This document shows positions 4,527 through 63,447 of a stretch of DNA of 64,000 bases, piece by piece. Origin of the DNA: Patescibacteria group bacterium (GTDB lineage: Bacteria; Patescibacteriota; Patescibacteriia; JBDRGY01); contig JBDRGY010000016.1 in the NCBI GenBank assembly GCA_043817315.1, positions 69,445 to 133,444 on the forward strand. Reading direction: 5' to 3'. The notes beneath the pieces are model-generated. The model saw only the letters and a program-made list of their open reading frames with translations. It was not told the origin of the DNA and searched no databases. A program made the position numbers and the translations under genes. Position 1 is the first letter of the stretch. Each line of letters opens with the position of its first letter.

Positions 4527-4610
4527 GCTGGAGTGGCGGAACTGGTAGACGCGCACGGTTCAGGTCCGTGTGCCCAATGGGGCGTGGAGGTTCGAGTCCT
4601 CTCTCCAGCA
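4527..4610 (+). tRNA. tRNA-Leu (anticodon CAG)
   Basis: Hand-folded cloverleaf: acceptor GCTGGAG/CTCCAGC, D-stem GCG/CGC, anticodon stem CACGG/CCGTG with loop TTCAGGT (CAG), long variable arm, T-arm GGAGG-TTCGAGT-CCTCT, discriminator A. No CCA is encoded. Confidence 0.85.
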
Positions 4611-44766: not shown

Positions 44767-45387
44767 CTAATTCGAAGAGTTGGATGGCTGCTCAGTTGCC
44801 TTCTCGGTCACGATCAAGCCGTCCTGGTAGTACACTCTGCGACCTTGCTGCAACAAGCGAGCCAACAACGCCATGCGAGATTTGGCCATAGCTTCGTCTG
44901 TTCTAGTCGGACTAGTCCTGGCCTGGAACACCTTGAGCTTGGGAATAGGAAAGTCCCGTTCCTTAACCTGGATACTTCCATTGTCCAAGACCTTAACCCA
45001 CTCGTAGATGTCAGGGTGCTGGCCATACACTGCGTCAGCAACCTGCTGGGTAATTTCTTTCTTGTCACGACCAGGTTCTGCATCGACCAGCTGCTGGAAC
45101 AGGCTATAGGCCTGATCATCCAGCTGATCCTTGATGTTGACTGAATCGGGCTGTTGCATCTTGGTGTCGCCAAGGGTCGGGTAAATCCTGACTCCATTGA
45201 CGAAGGCCTCGCTCCCCACAACCTTAAGGAAGTAGGGGCCAAGCACTTCCTGCTCACCCTCTTCATCAACTACCACGAACTGACCCGTCTCTATCAAGAG
45301 ACTGTCAGGCAGCGCGGGCGTGTCGTTGGCTACTACAGTCACGGCCATCAGGGCCACGATCATCATTGCGAGACTAAGGTGTCTCAT
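44767..45387 (-). CDS. Secreted hypothetical protein (206 aa), first gene of the island operon
   Basis: Start trimmed to MRHLSLAMMIVALMAVTVVA (ATG at 45387, RBS AAAGGAG). Signal peptide. Its stop TAG overlaps the RBS of the 976-aa gene. Confidence 0.5.
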   Translation of the reverse strand: MRHLSLAMMIVALMAVTVVANDTPALPDSLLIETGQFVVVDEEGEQEVLGPYFLKVVGSEAFVNGVRIYPTLGDTKMQQPDSVNIKDQLDDQAYSLFQQLVDAEPGRDKKEITQQVADAVYGQHPDIYEWVKVLDNGSIQVKERDFPIPKLKVFQARTSPTRTDEAMAKSRMALLARLLQQGRRVYYQDGLIVTEKATEQPSNSSN

Positions 45388-45532
45388 GGTGGTCACGCTC
45401 CTTTCAGGATTACTCCAACTGCCAATTGACCAATCGATCTGTTGCGGCAAGAAAACACCTCCTCTCAACCACGTTAGACGTTTACTGCGCTTTCCTTTCT
45501 TAGAAAACCATGGATTTTCAAGGTACGTATCC

Positions 45533-45552
45533 AAAAAAAACCTCATATGAGG
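45533..45552 (-). terminator. Intrinsic terminator on the minus strand about 200 nt downstream of rpoC; right boundary of the island
   Basis: Minus strand reads GAAAG-CCUCAUAUGAGG-UUUUUUUU. Confidence 0.65.
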
Positions 45553-45752
45553 CTTTCAAGCTATAGTCCGTCTATAACAAGACGTGCCGGTTTCGCTACT
45601 AGCTCCCTGCAGTTCAAGCGACCAGATACAAACTACAGTTCTTAGCCTCACCTTTTGTTTCCGTCGGAATAGCACTTCTGTCAATAGAACTTATCCACAG
45701 GGGTAACAAAAAACCCGATTTCTTAGCACTTTTATCAGGTTTCTTGACTATT

Positions 45753-56920: not shown

Positions 56921-59461
56921 CTATAGATTAACCCCGTTGAGGTAGCCCTTGGGATAGGCAATAAATTCATTGAGCAATAAAGTGCCCCGCCAATTGTATA
57001 CTCTGACCTTAGCTACGTCGCCACTTTCTATTGCTGTCACTATTTCAGCCTGGCCGTCACTATCCAGGTCAGCACTGGCCACATTGACTCCGCCCTGAAA
57101 GGAAGAATCAAAAGCCATGAAACCAGGGTTTAATAAACTGATGGTACTTTGTCTGTTGCGGCCAAATACTCTGATATGCGGTCCTCCAGCGGACACTACT
57201 CCGGTGATAATTTCATCAGCTCCATCGCTGTTTAGATCGCCGCAGGCTAAATTAATACCGCCCCGGAAACTTTCCTCGTAGGCCATCAAGCCCAGGATAA
57301 CCGGGCGATAGACGCCATTACGATAACCAAAGATTCGTAAATGAGGCCCCCCCTGAGATTTTGGGGCAGTTATGATTTCTGACAAACCGTCTCCTTCCAG
57401 ATCGCCGACAGCCAGATTGACCCCGCCGCGAAATCCTGAATCATAAGCCATGAAATTCTCGGTGGTCGGCAAATACTGTCCGTTGCGATAACCGAAAATT
57501 CGAATATTGGGACCGCCTCCGGAAAGTGGAGCCACTACTATTTCAGCCAAGCCACTGCCGTCCAAGTCACCGGTAGCCAGGGCTAACCCTCCTTGAAAGT
57601 TGCTATCAAAAGCCAGTACCACTTTTTCCAGAGTTCCCTGGGTATTAAATATCCTGATTTCGCCCCGACGGCCCGGGCCGGAAGCTGTAATAATTTCTTG
57701 ATTACCATCGCCATCCACGTCAGCTTTAGCCACCTTAACACCGCCACGGAAACTTTCTTCAAAAGCCATGAATTGGCTGACTAAATTTCCGTACTGATCC
57801 AATATTCTGACCTGGGGACCTCCTCCCTGTTTGGTGCCAGTAATAATCTGGTTGGTTACTTGAAAAGGCTCAAAGTCAGTTTGTAACGTATAAGTAGCCG
57901 AATCTTGATTGCCCAACCAATAGGCTTGGTTGAAGTCAGTAATGTCTAAGAAATGATATTCCATTTGTCCTGCTGCGGCCAGGCGAACGACCAGCCCCGT
58001 ATCAAACATACGATCAGTCGGATATGGAATAGCAGTATGGCCGGCAACTATGCCCTGGCTGTGATCATGGAGATCGGCGTAGCTAAACGGGTTTCTGGTT
58101 TCCATGAACATCCCCCAATAGGTAGAGGCCGTCTCTGAAGGGATTGTCCAAAGGCCCGAACTGTTAGTACCTCCGGAATACTTAATCATGTCTTCAAAGC
58201 CATAGGCTGATTCCTGAAAAATGGCAATTCCTGCTTGGGGCAAAGGATCGCCGTTTTTGTCCAAAACCTTTATCTTATTTTGAGCTGGAATATCTTTTAA
58301 ATACTCCCCGGGTATGCCCCTCCGCTTGGGCAGTCCCCTTCTATCTCCTGAGATGTCAGTGTAATAATTGTTAAAACGGATCAGGGCCAATATGGAATAT
58401 TCGGAAAAATACTGCTCGTTGATACTGTTTAAGAGGCCCGAGTGTCTGTTTTTATAAACATAGTCAGTCTCCACCTCGAGCATGCCCAGTCCACCACCTA
58501 CTGTGGCTCCATCCTCATCAGTAATATGAACATCAGAAGTATAAATAGATAGCTTAGACAAATCGACTAAGCCCAGGGTGTTAATGGCTAGGTTGCGCAA
58601 TAAATTCCAGTCAGTCGTTTTGGCATAAGCATTAACATAATCAGGGTCAGCGCACCAAATTCCCCGGTCCAGACAATCGTTGTCATCATAATCCCAAGCA
58701 ATATTCCAAGAACCATCGTACAGCCAATCCTCGGACCCAGTGCTACTGTCTATCTCACCATTGGCATGAATGTAAATATTATCAATTCGGACCCGTAGAT
58801 TAGCGCCGCTTGAAGTAGTAGAGCCCGTGGCACCGGTTAGGGCTTGATTCAAAATTTCATTGAAGGCACTGACTTGCTGCTGCAGCCAGTCTTCACAAGA
58901 ATAGGACCCTGCGCTGTTTTTCTGGTAATCAAAAGCGGAACAAAAGCCTTCCTCGACATGAAATATTAAGGAGAGGGTGTTGGTCTTTTCGGTCAATAAG
59001 TTATTCTGTTCTGATATTTCTTCAATGGTACCCTCGGGGTCAACCTGGAATTTGATGGTGTGGGTCCCGTCCACCCAGCGCCACAAATAGTCTTGAGTGG
59101 TGTAAGAGCCAGGGTTGAGATTGCTAATGGTTCCCGACGAAACTTCGACACCGTCAACGTACCATTTAAAACCAAACTCCCCTGAGATAACATTGCCCTG
59201 ATTGGTAATCTGAGCAGTGAATGTAACCATCTCTTCTTCTTCGGGCCAGCGCTGCCAGAATTCAGTACCAGTTTTCAGACGATACTGGCCATTCAATCCT
59301 CTTTCGGTGTGATATTTTTCATAGCGAGGTGTCCTGGAAATAAAGGTAACGTCCAAATCGGCCAGTTCACTCTCGTCTGTTGTCGCTTCTGTCTTCTCAA
59401 CCAAAAAGAAGCCGGAGATTATTAGGGCTAAAATGACTAGATAATATTTTTTCTTAACCAT
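56921..59461 (-). CDS. Secreted 846-aa protein with a C-terminal array of about 6 FG-GAP-like propeller repeats
   Basis: Signal peptide MVKKKYYLVILALIISGFFLVEKTEA. N-terminal beta-sandwich, then an unassigned middle domain. C-terminal repeats GGGPQVRILDQYGNLVSQFMAFEESFRGGVKVAKADVDGDGNQEIIT... homologous to those in the 1463-aa, 1725-aa and S8 proteins. Overlaps cutA by 25 nt. Confidence 0.75.
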   Translation of the reverse strand: MVKKKYYLVILALIISGFFLVEKTEATTDESELADLDVTFISRTPRYEKYHTERGLNGQYRLKTGTEFWQRWPEEEEMVTFTAQITNQGNVISGEFGFKWYVDGVEVSSGTISNLNPGSYTTQDYLWRWVDGTHTIKFQVDPEGTIEEISEQNNLLTEKTNTLSLIFHVEEGFCSAFDYQKNSAGSYSCEDWLQQQVSAFNEILNQALTGATGSTTSSGANLRVRIDNIYIHANGEIDSSTGSEDWLYDGSWNIAWDYDDNDCLDRGIWCADPDYVNAYAKTTDWNLLRNLAINTLGLVDLSKLSIYTSDVHITDEDGATVGGGLGMLEVETDYVYKNRHSGLLNSINEQYFSEYSILALIRFNNYYTDISGDRRGLPKRRGIPGEYLKDIPAQNKIKVLDKNGDPLPQAGIAIFQESAYGFEDMIKYSGGTNSSGLWTIPSETASTYWGMFMETRNPFSYADLHDHSQGIVAGHTAIPYPTDRMFDTGLVVRLAAAGQMEYHFLDITDFNQAYWLGNQDSATYTLQTDFEPFQVTNQIITGTKQGGGPQVRILDQYGNLVSQFMAFEESFRGGVKVAKADVDGDGNQEIITASGPGRRGEIRIFNTQGTLEKVVLAFDSNFQGGLALATGDLDGSGLAEIVVAPLSGGGPNIRIFGYRNGQYLPTTENFMAYDSGFRGGVNLAVGDLEGDGLSEIITAPKSQGGPHLRIFGYRNGVYRPVILGLMAYEESFRGGINLACGDLNSDGADEIITGVVSAGGPHIRVFGRNRQSTISLLNPGFMAFDSSFQGGVNVASADLDSDGQAEIVTAIESGDVAKVRVYNWRGTLLLNEFIAYPKGYLNGVNL

Positions 59462-59742
59462 AAATTATATTTCTTATCAACTTGGTTAGCTGCCAGAGAA
59501 AAGATAGCCGGTGCCTGGTAGCTGTGAAGTTTTTTAACTTCTATTTTGATCTTACTGAAATTCTTTTTAATTGTTTTTAAAATCAGTACCACTTCTTTGT
59601 CTGAAACTAACTTGCCCTGCCACCAGTACGTAGAGCTAATGGGAAAAATGTTGGCACAAACCGCCAGGTGTTTTTTTAAAACTGCTCTGGCAATTTTGTC
59701 GGCTTCCTTTTTATTGCCACAAACAATGTAAATCAGAATCAT
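59437..59742 (-). CDS. cutA: Divalent-cation tolerance protein CutA
   Basis: CutA1-like: LAVCANIFPISSTYWWQGKLVSDKEVVLILKT and C-terminal YNLWL; 101 aa. Confidence 0.8.
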   Translation of the reverse strand: MILIYIVCGNKKEADKIARAVLKKHLAVCANIFPISSTYWWQGKLVSDKEVVLILKTIKKNFSKIKIEVKKLHSYQAPAIFSLAANQVDKKYNLWLRKNII

Positions 59743-59743
59743 A

Positions 59744-59998
59744 TTACTCTACTACTTTAAAAACTTCGTCATGCTCTCTAACCGGTTGGTCCACTTTGGT
59801 TCCGACACTGTCTCCTTTCTTGGCTTCTGGCACATCTTGATGTTCCACCTGCATGGAAGCCACTTCCTGTTCAAAATCAGTGGCATGTCCCTTGATGTGG
59901 ATCTTGTCTCCTACTTTAAGCTCGTCTGATAGTTCAATAATGCCCACACTGATTTTGTTGAAAAAGTGTGAGATTTTGCCTACTGGTTTTTCTTCCAT
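59744..59998 (-). CDS. Small EF-Tu-domain-2-like (beta-barrel) protein
   Basis: 84 aa, GKISHFFNKISVGIIELSDELKVGDKIHIKGHATDFEQ...; resembles the 'translation elongation factor-like' small-protein family. Confidence 0.45.
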   Translation of the reverse strand: MEEKPVGKISHFFNKISVGIIELSDELKVGDKIHIKGHATDFEQEVASMQVEHQDVPEAKKGDSVGTKVDQPVREHDEVFKVVE

Positions 59999-60065
59999 AA
60001 CCCACCTCCTTCCTTAATAATTTCACTTCTAATTCTACTCTTTTTCTTATTATTTTTCAATAAAA

Positions 60066-60312
60066 AGAGCCCCTCGTCATCCAGGCTCTAGGTGCTGCTG
60101 ATTCAGTGATGCAAATGAAGTAACGAGGGGCGTATAGTAGTCCCGATTCCAGCTTCCACTCACAAGGCTGTGCTCGCTTTACGCGGCTGACGCGTTGTCT
60201 TGCCCTGGTACCAAGGGCGCCGGAATCGGGATCATCTAAAAATGAGCGTGAACTACTATCCTACACCAACTAAAAAAACTGTCAAGCCTTGCCGACAGCT
60301 TCGGTTTTTTTA
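60066..60312 (+). ncRNA. Candidate structured ncRNA of about 245 nt, GC-rich, with its own intrinsic terminator (unidentified family)
   Basis: No ORF of 60 aa or more. GC about 50% against AT-rich flanks. Nested helices: GCCCCUCGU...ACGAGGGGC; UAGUCCCGAUUCC...GGAAUCGGGAUCAUCUA; GCCCU-GGUACCA-AGGGC; CGCG-GCUGA-CGCG. Plus-strand terminator CCGA-CAGCU-UCGG then UUUUUUU at about 60290-60312. Strand inferred from the terminator; the minus strand also has a hairpin followed by UCUUUUUAUU at the 5' end. Confidence 0.35.
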
Positions 60313-60328
60313 GCTAAATCAAGCCAAA

Positions 60329-61225
60329 TCAACCTACTTGGGATTCCGTGTATTTAAGCGCTTCTGGTAAATAGTTTATGACATCTGTCGCCATCACTGA
60401 CCGTTCGCCTATCTCCTTGGTGGCCAGATCCCCGGCCAAACCGTGCAGGTATACGGAAGTAGCTGCCGCCTCAAACAGTTTCTCCTGGTTTTGGGCACCA
60501 AGCGTGGCTATGATCCCGGATAAAACATCACCAGAGCCAGCCGTGGCTAAGCCGGGTCCCCCTGATTTATTTATTACTTGCTTACCAGCCGGTTCTGTAA
60601 TTAACGTCTCCTGCCCTTTCAATACTAAGGTCAAATTCCATTCCCGGGCATAGCGCTCTGATAATTTGTACTTATTATCTTCGATCTCTTTGGGGGACAA
60701 TTTAATCAGCCGGCCCATTTCTCCATAATGGGGTGTGATAATAGTTCGATTGGGTCGGTTGCTAAATATCTCGTCGGGGTTTCCTTCAGAAATTGCATTC
60801 AAACCATCGGCATCTATTATTAACGGTTTATCAATCTTGGCAACAACCTGCTGGATTAGAGAAACCGTTTCTGAATTACGAGTCAGACCAGGACCCAGAA
60901 CTACCATATCAACATCTTCGGATCCTTTAACAATTTCTTCCAGCGCCTTGAGTGATAAGCTGCCAGCTGGTGTCTCTGGCAAAATCAGGCTCATCATTTC
61001 CGGCAGCACTTTACGATAAACATCTTTTAGACTTTCCGGGTAGCCAAAGACAATCAGGCCGATTCCTGTCCGAAAAGCCGCTTCTGCGGTCAGCAGACCT
61101 GCTCCGGACATTCCTTTGGATCCAGCAATGATTAAAATCTTGCCAGCCTGCCGTTTATGAATATTCTGGGGCCGTTGCCAGATTATCTCGGGAAAGATGA
61201 TTTTGTCTTGGATTAGGCGTTCCAT
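60329..61225 (-). CDS. ADP-dependent NAD(P)H-hydrate dehydratase (YjeF C-terminal domain / carbohydrate-kinase fold)
   Basis: GGPGLATAGSGDVLSGIIA motif. Start trimmed to MERLIQDK (ATG 61225). A TATAAT lies 6 nt upstream, suggesting a leaderless transcript. Confidence 0.7.
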   Translation of the reverse strand: MERLIQDKIIFPEIIWQRPQNIHKRQAGKILIIAGSKGMSGAGLLTAEAAFRTGIGLIVFGYPESLKDVYRKVLPEMMSLILPETPAGSLSLKALEEIVKGSEDVDMVVLGPGLTRNSETVSLIQQVVAKIDKPLIIDADGLNAISEGNPDEIFSNRPNRTIITPHYGEMGRLIKLSPKEIEDNKYKLSERYAREWNLTLVLKGQETLITEPAGKQVINKSGGPGLATAGSGDVLSGIIATLGAQNQEKLFEAAATSVYLHGLAGDLATKEIGERSVMATDVINYLPEALKYTESQVG

Positions 61226-61272
61226 GGGTTTATTATACCAACTATATATAATAAATAATATTCTTCGAGTGA

Positions 61273-61330
61273 CCCCGCGCCGCGGGGGAATCGAGAAGTG
61301 CCCCAATAGTTCTCGATGCGCCCTTCGGGC
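61273..61330. repeat. GC-rich triple-hairpin element between dinB and the nnr-like gene
   Basis: CCCCGCG-cc-GCGGGG; UCGAGAA-gugccccaauag-UUCUCGA; GCCC-UUCG-GGC. No U tail. Confidence 0.3.
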
Positions 61331-61347
61331 TTACTCGAACAATAATT

Positions 61348-62589
61348 TTATTCTAAGGTTAATCTATTTCTGTCTAAAAACTTAACCTGTTCACTTTTGC
61401 GAAAGCCGATCCTGTCATGAGCTTGTTTGTCTAAGCCATGCATCGAACCATACATTATGGAATATTCACCGTACTTATCATTGATTCGGTCCATGGCTTG
61501 GGCAATCTTTTTGGGCTTTAGGATGTCTTCCCAAAAAGCAATCTGGGCTTGCAGGGGAATCAGGTTGCTGACTGAAATGGCTAGAAAGCTAACCTTGTCC
61601 AGCAACTTAAAAGAGTTAAAGATGCCTGAGGCTGCTTTAAAAATACTTCTGGTGTCAAAAACAGGTTTAACTAATTTCTTGTGTTTGTACATCCCCCCGC
61701 CTGATACATAGCCCCAGCCCACATAAATATTTTTAGCTTCTAAATCTTGAATGCGCAGCCGTCTCCCGGTTTTCTCGCACAATTTTAATAAGATAGAATT
61801 CAAATACTTTTTATCAGTGGTCCGCTTGGGCAGACAATAAGAATGGCCGATTGATTTGGGTTTTCTGCCTTCACCTTCTTTAACTCCGGTTAATTCAATG
61901 CCATTAACATTGGCCCATAAATAATAGCCATTCTTGCCTAGGGCCTGCATTAAATTGGTCACCGAATAGTTTTTCAAGTCATTAAGATCATAGATGCCCA
62001 AAGCGTTTAACCTGGCTTCCGTCCGGTGATTAATGCCCCAGGCATCGGTTAATTTTACTTTATCGAAAACCTTGGGCAGTTCTTCTTTTTTAATAATCAA
62101 CAATTGATCGTTGCTGGCAATATCGGAACCAAACTTAGCCAACCATCTGGTCTCGGCCAGGCCCATGCAGCTTTTCAGCCATTCGCCAATTTCCTGCTTG
62201 ATTCTTTTCTTGATCTTGAACCCGACGATCTTGGCTTGTTCTAAATTATCAACGTGGCCGGTCAAATCCAAAAAGGCTTCATCAATGCTATAGGGCTCCA
62301 CCTCGTCGGTATAATCAGCCAAAATAGAAAAAATCCGGCGGGTGATGGTCCGGTACTTGGCTGGTTCGTTTTGGAGCAACACAATATCCGGACACAAAAC
62401 CAGCGCCTCCTTGACCCGGCAGCCTGTTTTTACTCCCTGCTGTTTGGCCTCAATGGAGGAAGCAATGATGCAACCGTTCTGGGAAAGATAAGCACAGACC
62501 CCCACTGGCTTGCCACGCAGGTGGGGATTGGCCTGCTGCTCGCAGGAAGCAAAATAGGAATTCATATCGATGTGAGCGATGATAGACAT
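61348..62589 (-). CDS. dinB: DNA polymerase IV (Y-family translesion polymerase)
   Basis: MSIIAHIDMNSYFASCEQQANPHLRGKPV (catalytic DxD/SYF region), SIDEAFLDL motif; 413 aa. Confidence 0.9.
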   Translation of the reverse strand: MSIIAHIDMNSYFASCEQQANPHLRGKPVGVCAYLSQNGCIIASSIEAKQQGVKTGCRVKEALVLCPDIVLLQNEPAKYRTITRRIFSILADYTDEVEPYSIDEAFLDLTGHVDNLEQAKIVGFKIKKRIKQEIGEWLKSCMGLAETRWLAKFGSDIASNDQLLIIKKEELPKVFDKVKLTDAWGINHRTEARLNALGIYDLNDLKNYSVTNLMQALGKNGYYLWANVNGIELTGVKEGEGRKPKSIGHSYCLPKRTTDKKYLNSILLKLCEKTGRRLRIQDLEAKNIYVGWGYVSGGGMYKHKKLVKPVFDTRSIFKAASGIFNSFKLLDKVSFLAISVSNLIPLQAQIAFWEDILKPKKIAQAMDRINDKYGEYSIMYGSMHGLDKQAHDRIGFRKSEQVKFLDRNRLTLE

Positions 62590-62590
62590 A

Positions 62591-62839
62591 TTACCCGTCG
62601 TAATAAAGCTCCTCTAACTGCCAGTTAAAATCCCTGGTGTTAAAACTTAATTTAAAATAATTGGCTTCATCAGAAACCGAGAAGTGATACAGCTTGTCAT
62701 TACCCGCCTTCTGACAATGAACCAGGTTAACTTTGTTAACGATGTACCGCTTGCCGCGCCATTCAAAAACCAGCGGCCTCATTTTATTTAGACCAAAAGA
62801 TACCAATACCTTAATTGGCTCGTTAATCGTTTCGTACAT
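62591..62839 (-). CDS. Conserved small protein (82 aa) translationally coupled between lexA and dinB (possible YolD-like polymerase accessory factor)
   Basis: ATG overlaps the lexA stop (TAATG); its own stop lies 1 nt before the dinB ATG. No recognisable catalytic motif. Confidence 0.45.
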   Translation of the reverse strand: MYETINEPIKVLVSFGLNKMRPLVFEWRGKRYIVNKVNLVHCQKAGNDKLYHFSVSDEANYFKLSFNTRDFNWQLEELYYDG

Positions 62840-63447
62840 TAAACCTGGCTAAACTTTCTAAAGATCCCCCGAACGATTCCCTGGATCGATGGATTCTTGG
62901 CAAAGATCGGTTTCATCTTTTTGTTGGCCGGTTGTAATCTGATTCGATTCTTTTCCCGAAAATACTTTTTCAGAGTAGCGTAAGTATTGTCCAGCAGGGC
63001 CACCACCACATCTCCATTTTGGGGATAATAATTCTGCTCCACAATCACGTAGTCTCCGTCTAGGATTCCTTCGTCAATCATAGATTCACCTTTGACCTTC
63101 AAAACAAACGAGCTATGATTTCTCACCAGATCAGCCGGCACTGTAATTATTTCCTGTTCTTCTATGGCTTCAATGGGCTCACCAGCTGTAATCAAGCCAG
63201 CCAAGGGCAGCTGAATGGCTGATCCTTTTTTAAACACTTTGGTTGACAACCTGATGGATCGCGGCGAAGAAGTGCTGCTTAAATAACCCTTCTGCTTTAA
63301 ATGCCGCAAATGAGCGTGAATAGTGGCCGGGGAAGTCAGGCCAAAATTAGCCCCGATTTCCCGAAGCGACGGGGGGTAGTCATGAGTATTAATATACTCC
63401 ACCAGGTAATTAAGGATTTCAGCTTGTTTTTTAGTCAGATTAGCCAT
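62839..63447 (-). CDS. lexA: LexA repressor
   Basis: N-terminal winged HTH (LREIGANFGLTSPATIHAHLRHLKQKGYL), Ala-Gly cleavage site (ITAGEP), S24 peptidase Ser (VKGESM) and Lys (TLKK). Confidence 0.9.
   Translation of the reverse strand: MANLTKKQAEILNYLVEYINTHDYPPSLREIGANFGLTSPATIHAHLRHLKQKGYLSSTSSPRSIRLSTKVFKKGSAIQLPLAGLITAGEPIEAIEEQEIITVPADLVRNHSSFVLKVKGESMIDEGILDGDYVIVEQNYYPQNGDVVVALLDNTYATLKKYFREKNRIRLQPANKKMKPIFAKNPSIQGIVRGIFRKFSQV

Follow-up and report, generated by a model that had tools for sequence, protein, structure and literature searches.

The 330-nt gap at positions 59999 to 60328 of the window (the whole 64,000-nt stretch of DNA that was analysed) probably encodes an independent, structured small RNA (sRNA) of ~190 nt, transcribed from the minus strand from ~60250 to ~60060; from sequence comparison and modelled folds, the probability of this reading is put at roughly 0.6. 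The putative RNA is new and lineage-restricted, belongs to no curated family, and has the predicted layout of a classical trans-encoded sRNA unit. The gap separates a gene for an 84-aa protein from an ORF of the Carb_kinase/Nnr type (nnr; 60329–61306, minus strand), and, as the first-pass annotation had described, it is free of ORFs of at least 40 aa. The higher GC content described there amounts to a modest enrichment, with 0.53–0.57 at 60100–60250 vs 0.32–0.45 in both flanks. All neighbouring genes lie on the minus strand, in the order lexA, an 82-aa ORF, a dinB-type gene, nnr, the gap, the 84-aa gene, cutA, and a gene for an 846-aa CARDB/FG-GAP protein, the first two genes after the gap being:

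59744–59998, minus strand: 84-aa gene, product weakly similar to an EF-Tu domain 2/U32-C-like beta-barrel (Pfam and NCBIfam)
59437–59742, minus strand: cutA, the next gene after the 84-aa gene in the window

Several other features of the window were recorded. Directly upstream of nnr lies an SOS-type cluster (61348–63447, minus strand) comprising lexA, with an S24 peptidase and a LexA DNA-binding domain, the 82-aa ORF, which has no family, and a polymerase gene of the dinB/IMS family. A full-length c-di-GMP-II riboswitch aptamer (45576–45659, minus strand; 69 bits, E = 2e-13) is located ~30 nt upstream of a 259-aa ORF (44767–45546, minus strand) and implies c-di-GMP signalling in a Patescibacteria-type genome. 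The sole tRNA of the window is a tRNA-Leu(CAG) with a long variable arm (4527–4610, plus strand).

Contigs encoding the 84-aa protein or close relatives were fetched, and their loci are referred to here by L-numbers. The features assigned to the gap, read along the minus strand, are as follows:

60275–60302, minus strand: intrinsic terminator of the nnr-like gene, GAAGCUGUCGGCAAGGCUUGACAG followed by U7 (terminator scan; 11-bp hairpin)
60258–60285, minus strand: sigma-70-type promoter of the RNA, TTGACA (60285–60280), a 16-nt T-rich spacer, and TAGGAT (60263–60258) (consensus scan)
60238–60253, minus strand: conserved 5′ end of the transcript, GUUCACGCUCAUUUUU (11-mer identity and partition-function folding)
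60141–60231, minus strand: stalk domain of ~90 nt (folds and homologs aligned to a covariance model)
60059–60131, minus strand: large 3′ hairpin, the intrinsic terminator of the RNA (fold and conservation)
60032–60060, minus strand: second promoter, for the 84-aa gene and cutA, TTGAAA (60060–60055), a 17-nt spacer, and TAGAAT (60037–60032) (scan)

The order on the minus strand is promoter, ~190 nt of structured RNA, terminator, second promoter, and 84-aa gene, so that an own promoter, an own Rho-independent terminator, and a separate downstream promoter, as in an independent sRNA gene, can all be read in the sequence. The RNA promoter, whose −35 box is contained in the 3′ arm of the nnr terminator, scored 10/12 in the consensus scan, and its boxes, CTTGAC(A/T) and TAnnAT/TATAAT, are kept at the same spacing in L001, L002, L004, L089, L093, and L094. 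The RNA terminator has an 11-bp base formed by GCCCCUCGUUA (60131–60121) and UGACGAGGGGC (60079–60069), encloses inner helices, and is followed by UCUUUUUAUU (60068–60059); stem and U-tract are kept in L001, L002, L088, L089, and L093. This hairpin is unusually large (~65 nt), and it was missed by a simple terminator scan because its loop exceeds 8 nt. The second promoter overlaps the end of the U-tract and is kept in every homologous locus as TTGA(A/T)A-17-TA(G/A)(A/G)AT, and the sequence 3′ of it diverges quickly, up to the Shine-Dalgarno sequence. In L094, ~150 nt separate the RNA terminator from the second promoter, which is therefore not merely part of the terminator. Because this conserved promoter stands between the terminator and the 84-aa gene, the putative RNA is most likely an independent transcription unit, separate from the gene downstream.

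The first-pass annotation had placed the RNA on the plus strand (60066–60312) with a terminator that it took to be independent of the flanking genes. A hairpin with T7 does occur on the plus strand at 60291–60312; it is the other face of the nnr terminator, whose 11-bp hairpin and T7 on the minus strand (60302–60275) come directly after the nnr stop codon (60329–60331), and L093 keeps the minus-strand hairpin (CUGUCA...UGACAG and U7) and does not keep the plus-strand hairpin CCGACAGCTTCGG. The 9-bp helix GCCCCUCGU/ACGAGGGGC quoted in the same annotation lengthens to 11 bp on the minus strand and runs into the U-tract there, and together with it forms the actual terminator. What survives of the earlier proposal is a structured non-coding locus with a terminator of its own, conserved and showing compensatory changes; its strand, its boundaries, and the terminator assigned to it were mistaken. 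The locus illustrates that a helix-based reading of raw sequence can choose the wrong strand, and that a “terminator on the empty strand” beside a convergent-looking gap is usually the other face of a neighbour’s bidirectional terminator. As a separate observation, a hairpin with a T-tract reaches into or borders the −35 box of the RNA in L089 (~655–705, CAAGGUU-AUCCCCAAG-AACCUUG) and L002 (AGGGUU-AUCCCCA-AACCCU), and it is kept with compensatory changes in L089 and L001/L002 though the divergent upstream gene there needs no terminator on the strand of the RNA.

All lineages whose 84-aa protein shares at least 76% identity with that of the window have the element upstream of the gene, namely L004–L007 (same species), L093 (90%), L001 and L002/L003/L008 (90%), L088 (81%; locus cut at its 5′ end), and L089 (76%). 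Across L001, L002, L004, L088, L089, L093, and L094 the 84-aa gene is always the next gene after the RNA, and the two adjoin even where the upstream neighbour differs. L094 (81%) shares the promoter and the first 19 nt, GTAGTTCACGCTCATTTTT, but joins them to a different body. In that body (L094 317–650) TAGTGGTAATT is repeated six times in tandem, and the 3′ end is a similar terminator, GCCCCC...GGGGGGC and U7, amounting to a modular swap of the middle of the RNA; in L089 (860–1000), a hairpin domain of ~130 nt (GUCCCGACUG ... CAGUUGGGAC) is inserted between stalk and terminator. No element was detected where the 84-aa protein is at most 75% identical (L090, L091, L095–L097), nor, by nhmmer and two covariance models, in 80 loci of more distant 84-aa homologs from many phyla; the one extra match among the latter, in L068, proved to be only a generic terminator. 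On these comparisons, the predicted RNA family is restricted to a small clade of Patescibacteria with an 84-aa protein at least 76% identical.

A pattern scan of metagenomes gave three matches, two of them coding false positives and the third L098, a GC-rich JGI contig with HigBA-like genes beside the match. Beyond the degenerate pattern, L098 shares CAAGCGUCAG and CUCGUUACAUUCAAUUGCACUGA with the window RNA, and its 3′ part was attained by 1 of 2,000 shuffles; it was not recovered by the covariance models and does not adjoin an 84-aa-type gene. It is a probable distant relative of the window RNA. Upstream of this probable homolog, L098 (115–180) also carries two near-perfect, operator-like palindromes, TTGTGCC(G/A)CGTGGCACAA, on the same contig as the HigB- and HigA-like genes. 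Scans of viral contigs returned chance matches only, and BLAST against phage and plasmid records returned none. One of the close homologs, L002, is the same as L008 (JAIWBS010000089.1), a 3.9-kb contig deposited as part of a “Pirellulales bacterium” MAG; it has the order nnr, RNA, 84-aa gene and a protein 90% identical, and is probably a binning contaminant.

The strict adjacency to the 84-aa gene would also fit a cis-acting or protein-partner role, and it counts to that extent against a stand-alone sRNA acting in trans. The element could be a cis-regulatory leader (riboswitch or attenuator) of the 84-aa gene/cutA operon, with the stalk sensing a ligand or protein and controlling read-through of the GCCCCUCGU/ACGAGGGGC terminator, although we consider this unlikely. 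Its position directly upstream of and co-oriented with the 84-aa gene, even with another upstream neighbour, agrees with such a leader, as does a structured domain followed by an intrinsic terminator, which is the layout of a transcriptional riboswitch; the domain also contains a conserved block, GCGUCAGCC, and the downstream genes (cutA, plus Na_Ca_ex in L001) are ion-related ones typical of metal riboswitch regulons. However, a conserved −35/−10 promoter with 17-nt spacing stands between terminator and gene in all loci, and comparison of the homologs by eye revealed no conserved antiterminator pairing with either terminator arm; manual inspection of five sequence types for mutually exclusive terminator and antiterminator pairings yielded only non-conserved alternatives of 4–6 bp. 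Moreover, L094 retains promoter, 5′ end, and terminator but swaps the whole “aptamer,” the 130-nt hairpin of L089 between domain and terminator would uncouple a switch, and the probable relative in L098 is not beside an 84-aa-type gene.

Transcription is inferred to start at about 60250 ± 4. The conserved 5′ end reads RTTCACGCTCATTTTT, with a diverged form, AATCGCACCTTAT, in L001/L002 (L001-type seed, AAUCGCACCUUAU), and an 11-mer of it is identical in L004–L007, L089, L093, and L094. Partition-function folding of five homologs gave a mean probability of being unpaired of 0.77–0.96 for the first 16 nt, vs ~0.42 for the whole RNA, so that a conserved, predicted single-stranded region lies at the 5′ end, as in seed-type sRNAs. 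The 5′ end is kept in lineages whose bodies differ, that is, in L094 with its other body and in L089 with its 130-nt insertion. Predicted accessibility and retention despite a body swap are the pattern expected of a seed or recognition element, for which the 5′ end is a candidate. Within the 64-kb window, the complement of the 5′ end, AAAAAUGAGCGUGAA, occurs at no gene or translation start, and an RNAduplex scan of 93 ORF starts produced no outlier, the adjacent gene ranking 19th. A LexA box of the Cheo type (GAAC-N4-GTTC) is absent from the RNA start. Separately, a 13-nt stretch, TTCACGCTCATTT, inside lexA (62839–63447) at 63308–63320 (minus strand) matches the RNA 5′ end letter for letter in the same orientation; there it codes for VHAHL, part of the DNA-binding helix, its chance occurrence in 64 kb was estimated post hoc at ~0.002–0.008, and it may reflect coincidence, shared recognition, or the origin of the seed.

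If base pairing were not involved, the RNA might instead be dedicated to a protein partner, such as the adjacent EF-Tu-domain-2-like beta-barrel, and serve as a scaffold, decoy, or RNP component; this we regard as rather improbable. The invariant linkage to the 84-aa gene speaks for it, GCGUCAGCC and the 5′ end, which are conserved without being helical, might serve for protein recognition, and no mRNA target emerged among the 93 ORF starts of the window. Proteins that handle RNA are known to contain EF-Tu domain 2 and U32 C-terminal barrels, which also favours a partnership. Yet the 84-aa family is widespread across bacteria and archaea while the RNA was found in 0 of the 80 more distant loci, the 84-aa protein has only weak Pfam and PDB similarity and no known RNA-binding activity, and the idea is entirely circumstantial. 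A Patescibacteria-group MAG carries an annotated protein identical to the window’s 84-aa protein.

The predicted fold of the putative sRNA consists of two side-by-side hairpin domains and a free 5′ end. Both long helices quoted in the first-pass annotation, GCCCCTCGT (60069–60077) with ACGAGGGGC (60123–60131) and TAGTCCCGATTCC (60138–60150) with GGAATCGGGATC (60222–60233), are present; they form adjacent domains and are not nested as had been stated. The first domain is the ~90-nt stalk, CCCGAUUCC/GGAAUCGGG plus extensions, in which helix P2 pairs UCCCGAUUCCGGC (60231–60219) with GCUGGAAUCGGGA (60153–60141), and the cap is made of P3 (60205–60202/60168–60165), the hairpin P4 (60187–60183/60177–60172), and the conserved block GCGUCAGCC (60193–60185). 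Folds of single homologs share one architecture of P2, a one-base bulge, a continuation, P3, and P4. The stalk strands CCCGRUUY and GCURRRAUCGGG and the block GCGUCAGCC are conserved across lineages, and the continuation of P2 differs by lineage (GGC/GCU in the window, GCGG/CCGC in L088, GCGAC/GUCGC in L089, UUGGCG/CGCUGA in L001). P3 occurs as GGGC/GCCU, GGGU/GCCC, or GGGU/ACCC, and P4, a hairpin with a 5-nt loop, as CGC/GCG, GCC/GGC, or GCCG/CGGC. The two small hairpins of the first-pass annotation are kept less consistently among homologs (GCCCU/AGGGC in 17 of 27 cells, CGCG/CGCG in 19 of 30) than P3 and P4, and the alternative pairings fare better (GGGY/RCCY in 22 of 22 cells, CGC/GCG with a 5-nt loop in 17 of 18), a comparison that leans toward the alternatives in that the alignment had been fitted to them.

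Three further candidates were discarded. A helix P1 (GUAGU/ACUAC) appears in the minimum free energy (MFE) fold, but neither L093 nor L001 keeps it, and it coincides in part with the probable transcription start. A plus-strand ORF beginning MSVNYYPTPTKK (60242–60313) varies from 11 to >26 aa and lacks a Shine-Dalgarno sequence, and the promoter boxes of the opposite strand account for its conservation; an 18-aa ORF on the minus strand has no ATG in L093, and neither ORF is coding. On either strand, neither presence nor length of the mini-ORFs is conserved.

Compensatory changes were counted on an alignment for which a covariance model was built from the three closest sequences and a hand-drawn structure, and the other homologs were aligned to it. 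In this alignment, 94.8% of 250 cells were paired and 16 of 45 pairs had changed on both sides; sliding the registers by 1–3 columns lowered these values to 35–47% and at most three double-change pairs, and none of 500 shuffles attained the observed values. By helix, the figures were 92.8% paired with four double changes for helix 1 (17 pairs), 100% with three for P3, 96% with two for P4, and 96.5% with four for helix 4, the terminator. This alignment is fitted to the structure, and the count was repeated on a structure-blind MAFFT alignment with visible one-base misalignments, where 76.9% of cells were paired (36–52% when slid) and 10 pairs showed double changes (1–5 when slid). About half of the paired columns never vary, and the homologs number six to seven distinct sequences, all close relatives, which makes covariation statistics weak. 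Base pairs appear to be kept by compensatory substitutions above the control level, which for six close sequences is supportive, not decisive.

The same properties give some room to the view that there is no functional RNA at all, and that the gap consists of conserved DNA-level signals (two promoters, two terminators, operator-like repeats) with neutral sequence between them in closely related genomes. In its support, the homologs are a small set of near relatives, roughly half of the paired columns are invariant, and promoter and terminator elements account for part of the conservation. Such a view is nevertheless quite improbable: the central 90-nt stalk lies outside any promoter or terminator and its pairing is kept through double substitutions and indels, divergence is much faster in the intergenic stretch beyond the second −10 box, and a promoter firing into a terminator 190 nt away would be purposeless unless the transcript matters.

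The direction of the putative sRNA was examined by folding and by wobble pairs. Against dinucleotide shuffles, both strands of the gap fold better than expected (z = −2.85 for plus, −4.48 for minus), and the exact minus-strand RNA has z = −3.87. The modelled helices contain 26 G.U cells vs 8 A.C cells, giving 94.8% paired cells on the minus strand vs 87.6% if read on the plus strand. In L001, L002, L004, L088, L089, and L093 the element is always in the orientation of the 84-aa gene, corresponding to the minus strand of the window. The excess of G.U pairs, the promoter, the U-tract, and the invariant orientation therefore settle the strand of the predicted RNA as minus, from ~60250 to ~60060. 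The original model of a ~245-nt plus-strand RNA (60066–60312) ending at CCGACAGCUUCGG and U7 is very improbable. In its favour, the plus strand also folds better than its shuffles and carries a 5-bp hairpin followed by T7, and Watson-Crick covariation cannot separate the strands. Its z-score is, however, the weaker of the two, and the scan detected no promoter on that strand 5′ of 60066. In all homologs it is the minus strand that keeps the promoter boxes and the U-tract behind the large hairpin; read on the plus strand, the 26 G.U cells would turn into A.C mismatches, with only 8 cells going the other way. The plus-strand terminator hairpin has disappeared in L093 and is missing from L001 and L089, where the minus-strand signals persist.

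Comparison with known RNA families bears out the earlier impression, gained by eye, that the locus matches none of tmRNA, RNase P, SRP, or 6S RNA. The Rfam search that had been proposed as a check was run, and in the window Rfam 15 cmscan recovered only the c-di-GMP-II riboswitch and the tRNA, both elsewhere; at the element there was no match at the gathering threshold, and at E ≤ 10 the interval 59950–60400 gave only two chance eukaryotic matches. Six homologous loci searched at E ≤ 1 gave nothing at the element. ARAGORN, searching for tmRNA and tRNA-like structures, found only the tRNA-Leu at 4527–4610 in the window and nothing in L001, L089, L094, or L098. By eye, GUCAGCCGC-GUAAA-GCGAGCAC resembles SRP helix 8 (GUCAGGUCC-GGAA-GGAAGCAGC); this SRP-like reading was rejected, as the register of the hairpin is not constant among homologs, L001 has ACAC in place of the AGCA side, and no Rfam SRP match exists. 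A 6S-like fold was likewise rejected, since it would require paired ends and a central bubble, neither of which is seen in the fold.

Taken as a stand-alone sRNA, the locus might work as follows. The sigma-70-type promoter inside the nnr terminator would fire and yield a transcript of ~190 nt, which would terminate Rho-independently at the U-tract after the 3′ hairpin and be released. The sRNA would then act in trans, most likely by means of the conserved 5′ end, which is predicted to be accessible and could pair with an mRNA or be recognised by a protein, and the structured body and terminator hairpin may provide stability or a protein-binding scaffold. The 84-aa gene would be driven by the separate promoter right after the RNA terminator. 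More tentatively, and with the odds against it, the RNA could be the first known representative of a modular sRNA family confined to a small Patescibacteria clade (Candidate Phyla Radiation, CPR), with a fixed 5′ end and terminator, an exchangeable body (a stalk here, tandem repeats in L094), and a tie to a beta-barrel as possible partner; if so, few regulatory RNAs would have been proposed earlier for these episymbiotic bacteria with their reduced genomes.

Patescibacteria/CPR have tiny genomes and few classical regulators. Their regulatory RNAs are essentially uncharted, and a literature search on CPR sRNAs or this motif found nothing relevant. A conserved, stand-alone structured RNA would offer a concrete object for asking how CPR organisms regulate their genes. 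As a candidate for a first regulatory sRNA in a CPR clade the element is plausible, with a narrow distribution and limited immediate impact.

Several known systems resemble the predicted RNA in part. Riboswitch-derived sRNAs are exemplified by SreA/SreB of Listeria, which are SAM riboswitches that also act in trans. Like these and transcriptional riboswitches in general, the element has a structured domain directly before an intrinsic terminator and is upstream of, and co-oriented with, a conserved gene; unlike them, it has a promoter between terminator and gene, no antiterminator found in the homologs compared, a domain that is replaceable (L094) and separable (L089), and no Rfam riboswitch match. 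With 6S RNA (RF00013 and relatives) it shares a size of ~190 nt and the form of a stand-alone RNA gene of the abundant type with its own promoter and terminator, whereas the window RNA lacks the rod-like fold with paired ends and has no Rfam match to 6S RNA even at E ≤ 10. The enterobacterial OmrA/OmrB pair and RybB are examples of trans-encoded sRNAs that carry a conserved seed at the 5′ end and terminate Rho-independently. The window RNA differs from these in having no sequence or Rfam relationship to them and in its ~90-nt covarying stalk, which is larger than usual for seed-type sRNAs, and no chaperone is known from this lineage. It resembles them in its sigma-70-type promoter, its length in the range of 100–200 nt, its conserved accessible 5′ end, and its 3′ terminator hairpin with U-tract, all of them predicted here, and, as with OmrA/OmrB, related loci (the window type and the L094 type) have their 5′ and 3′ ends in common and differ in the middle.
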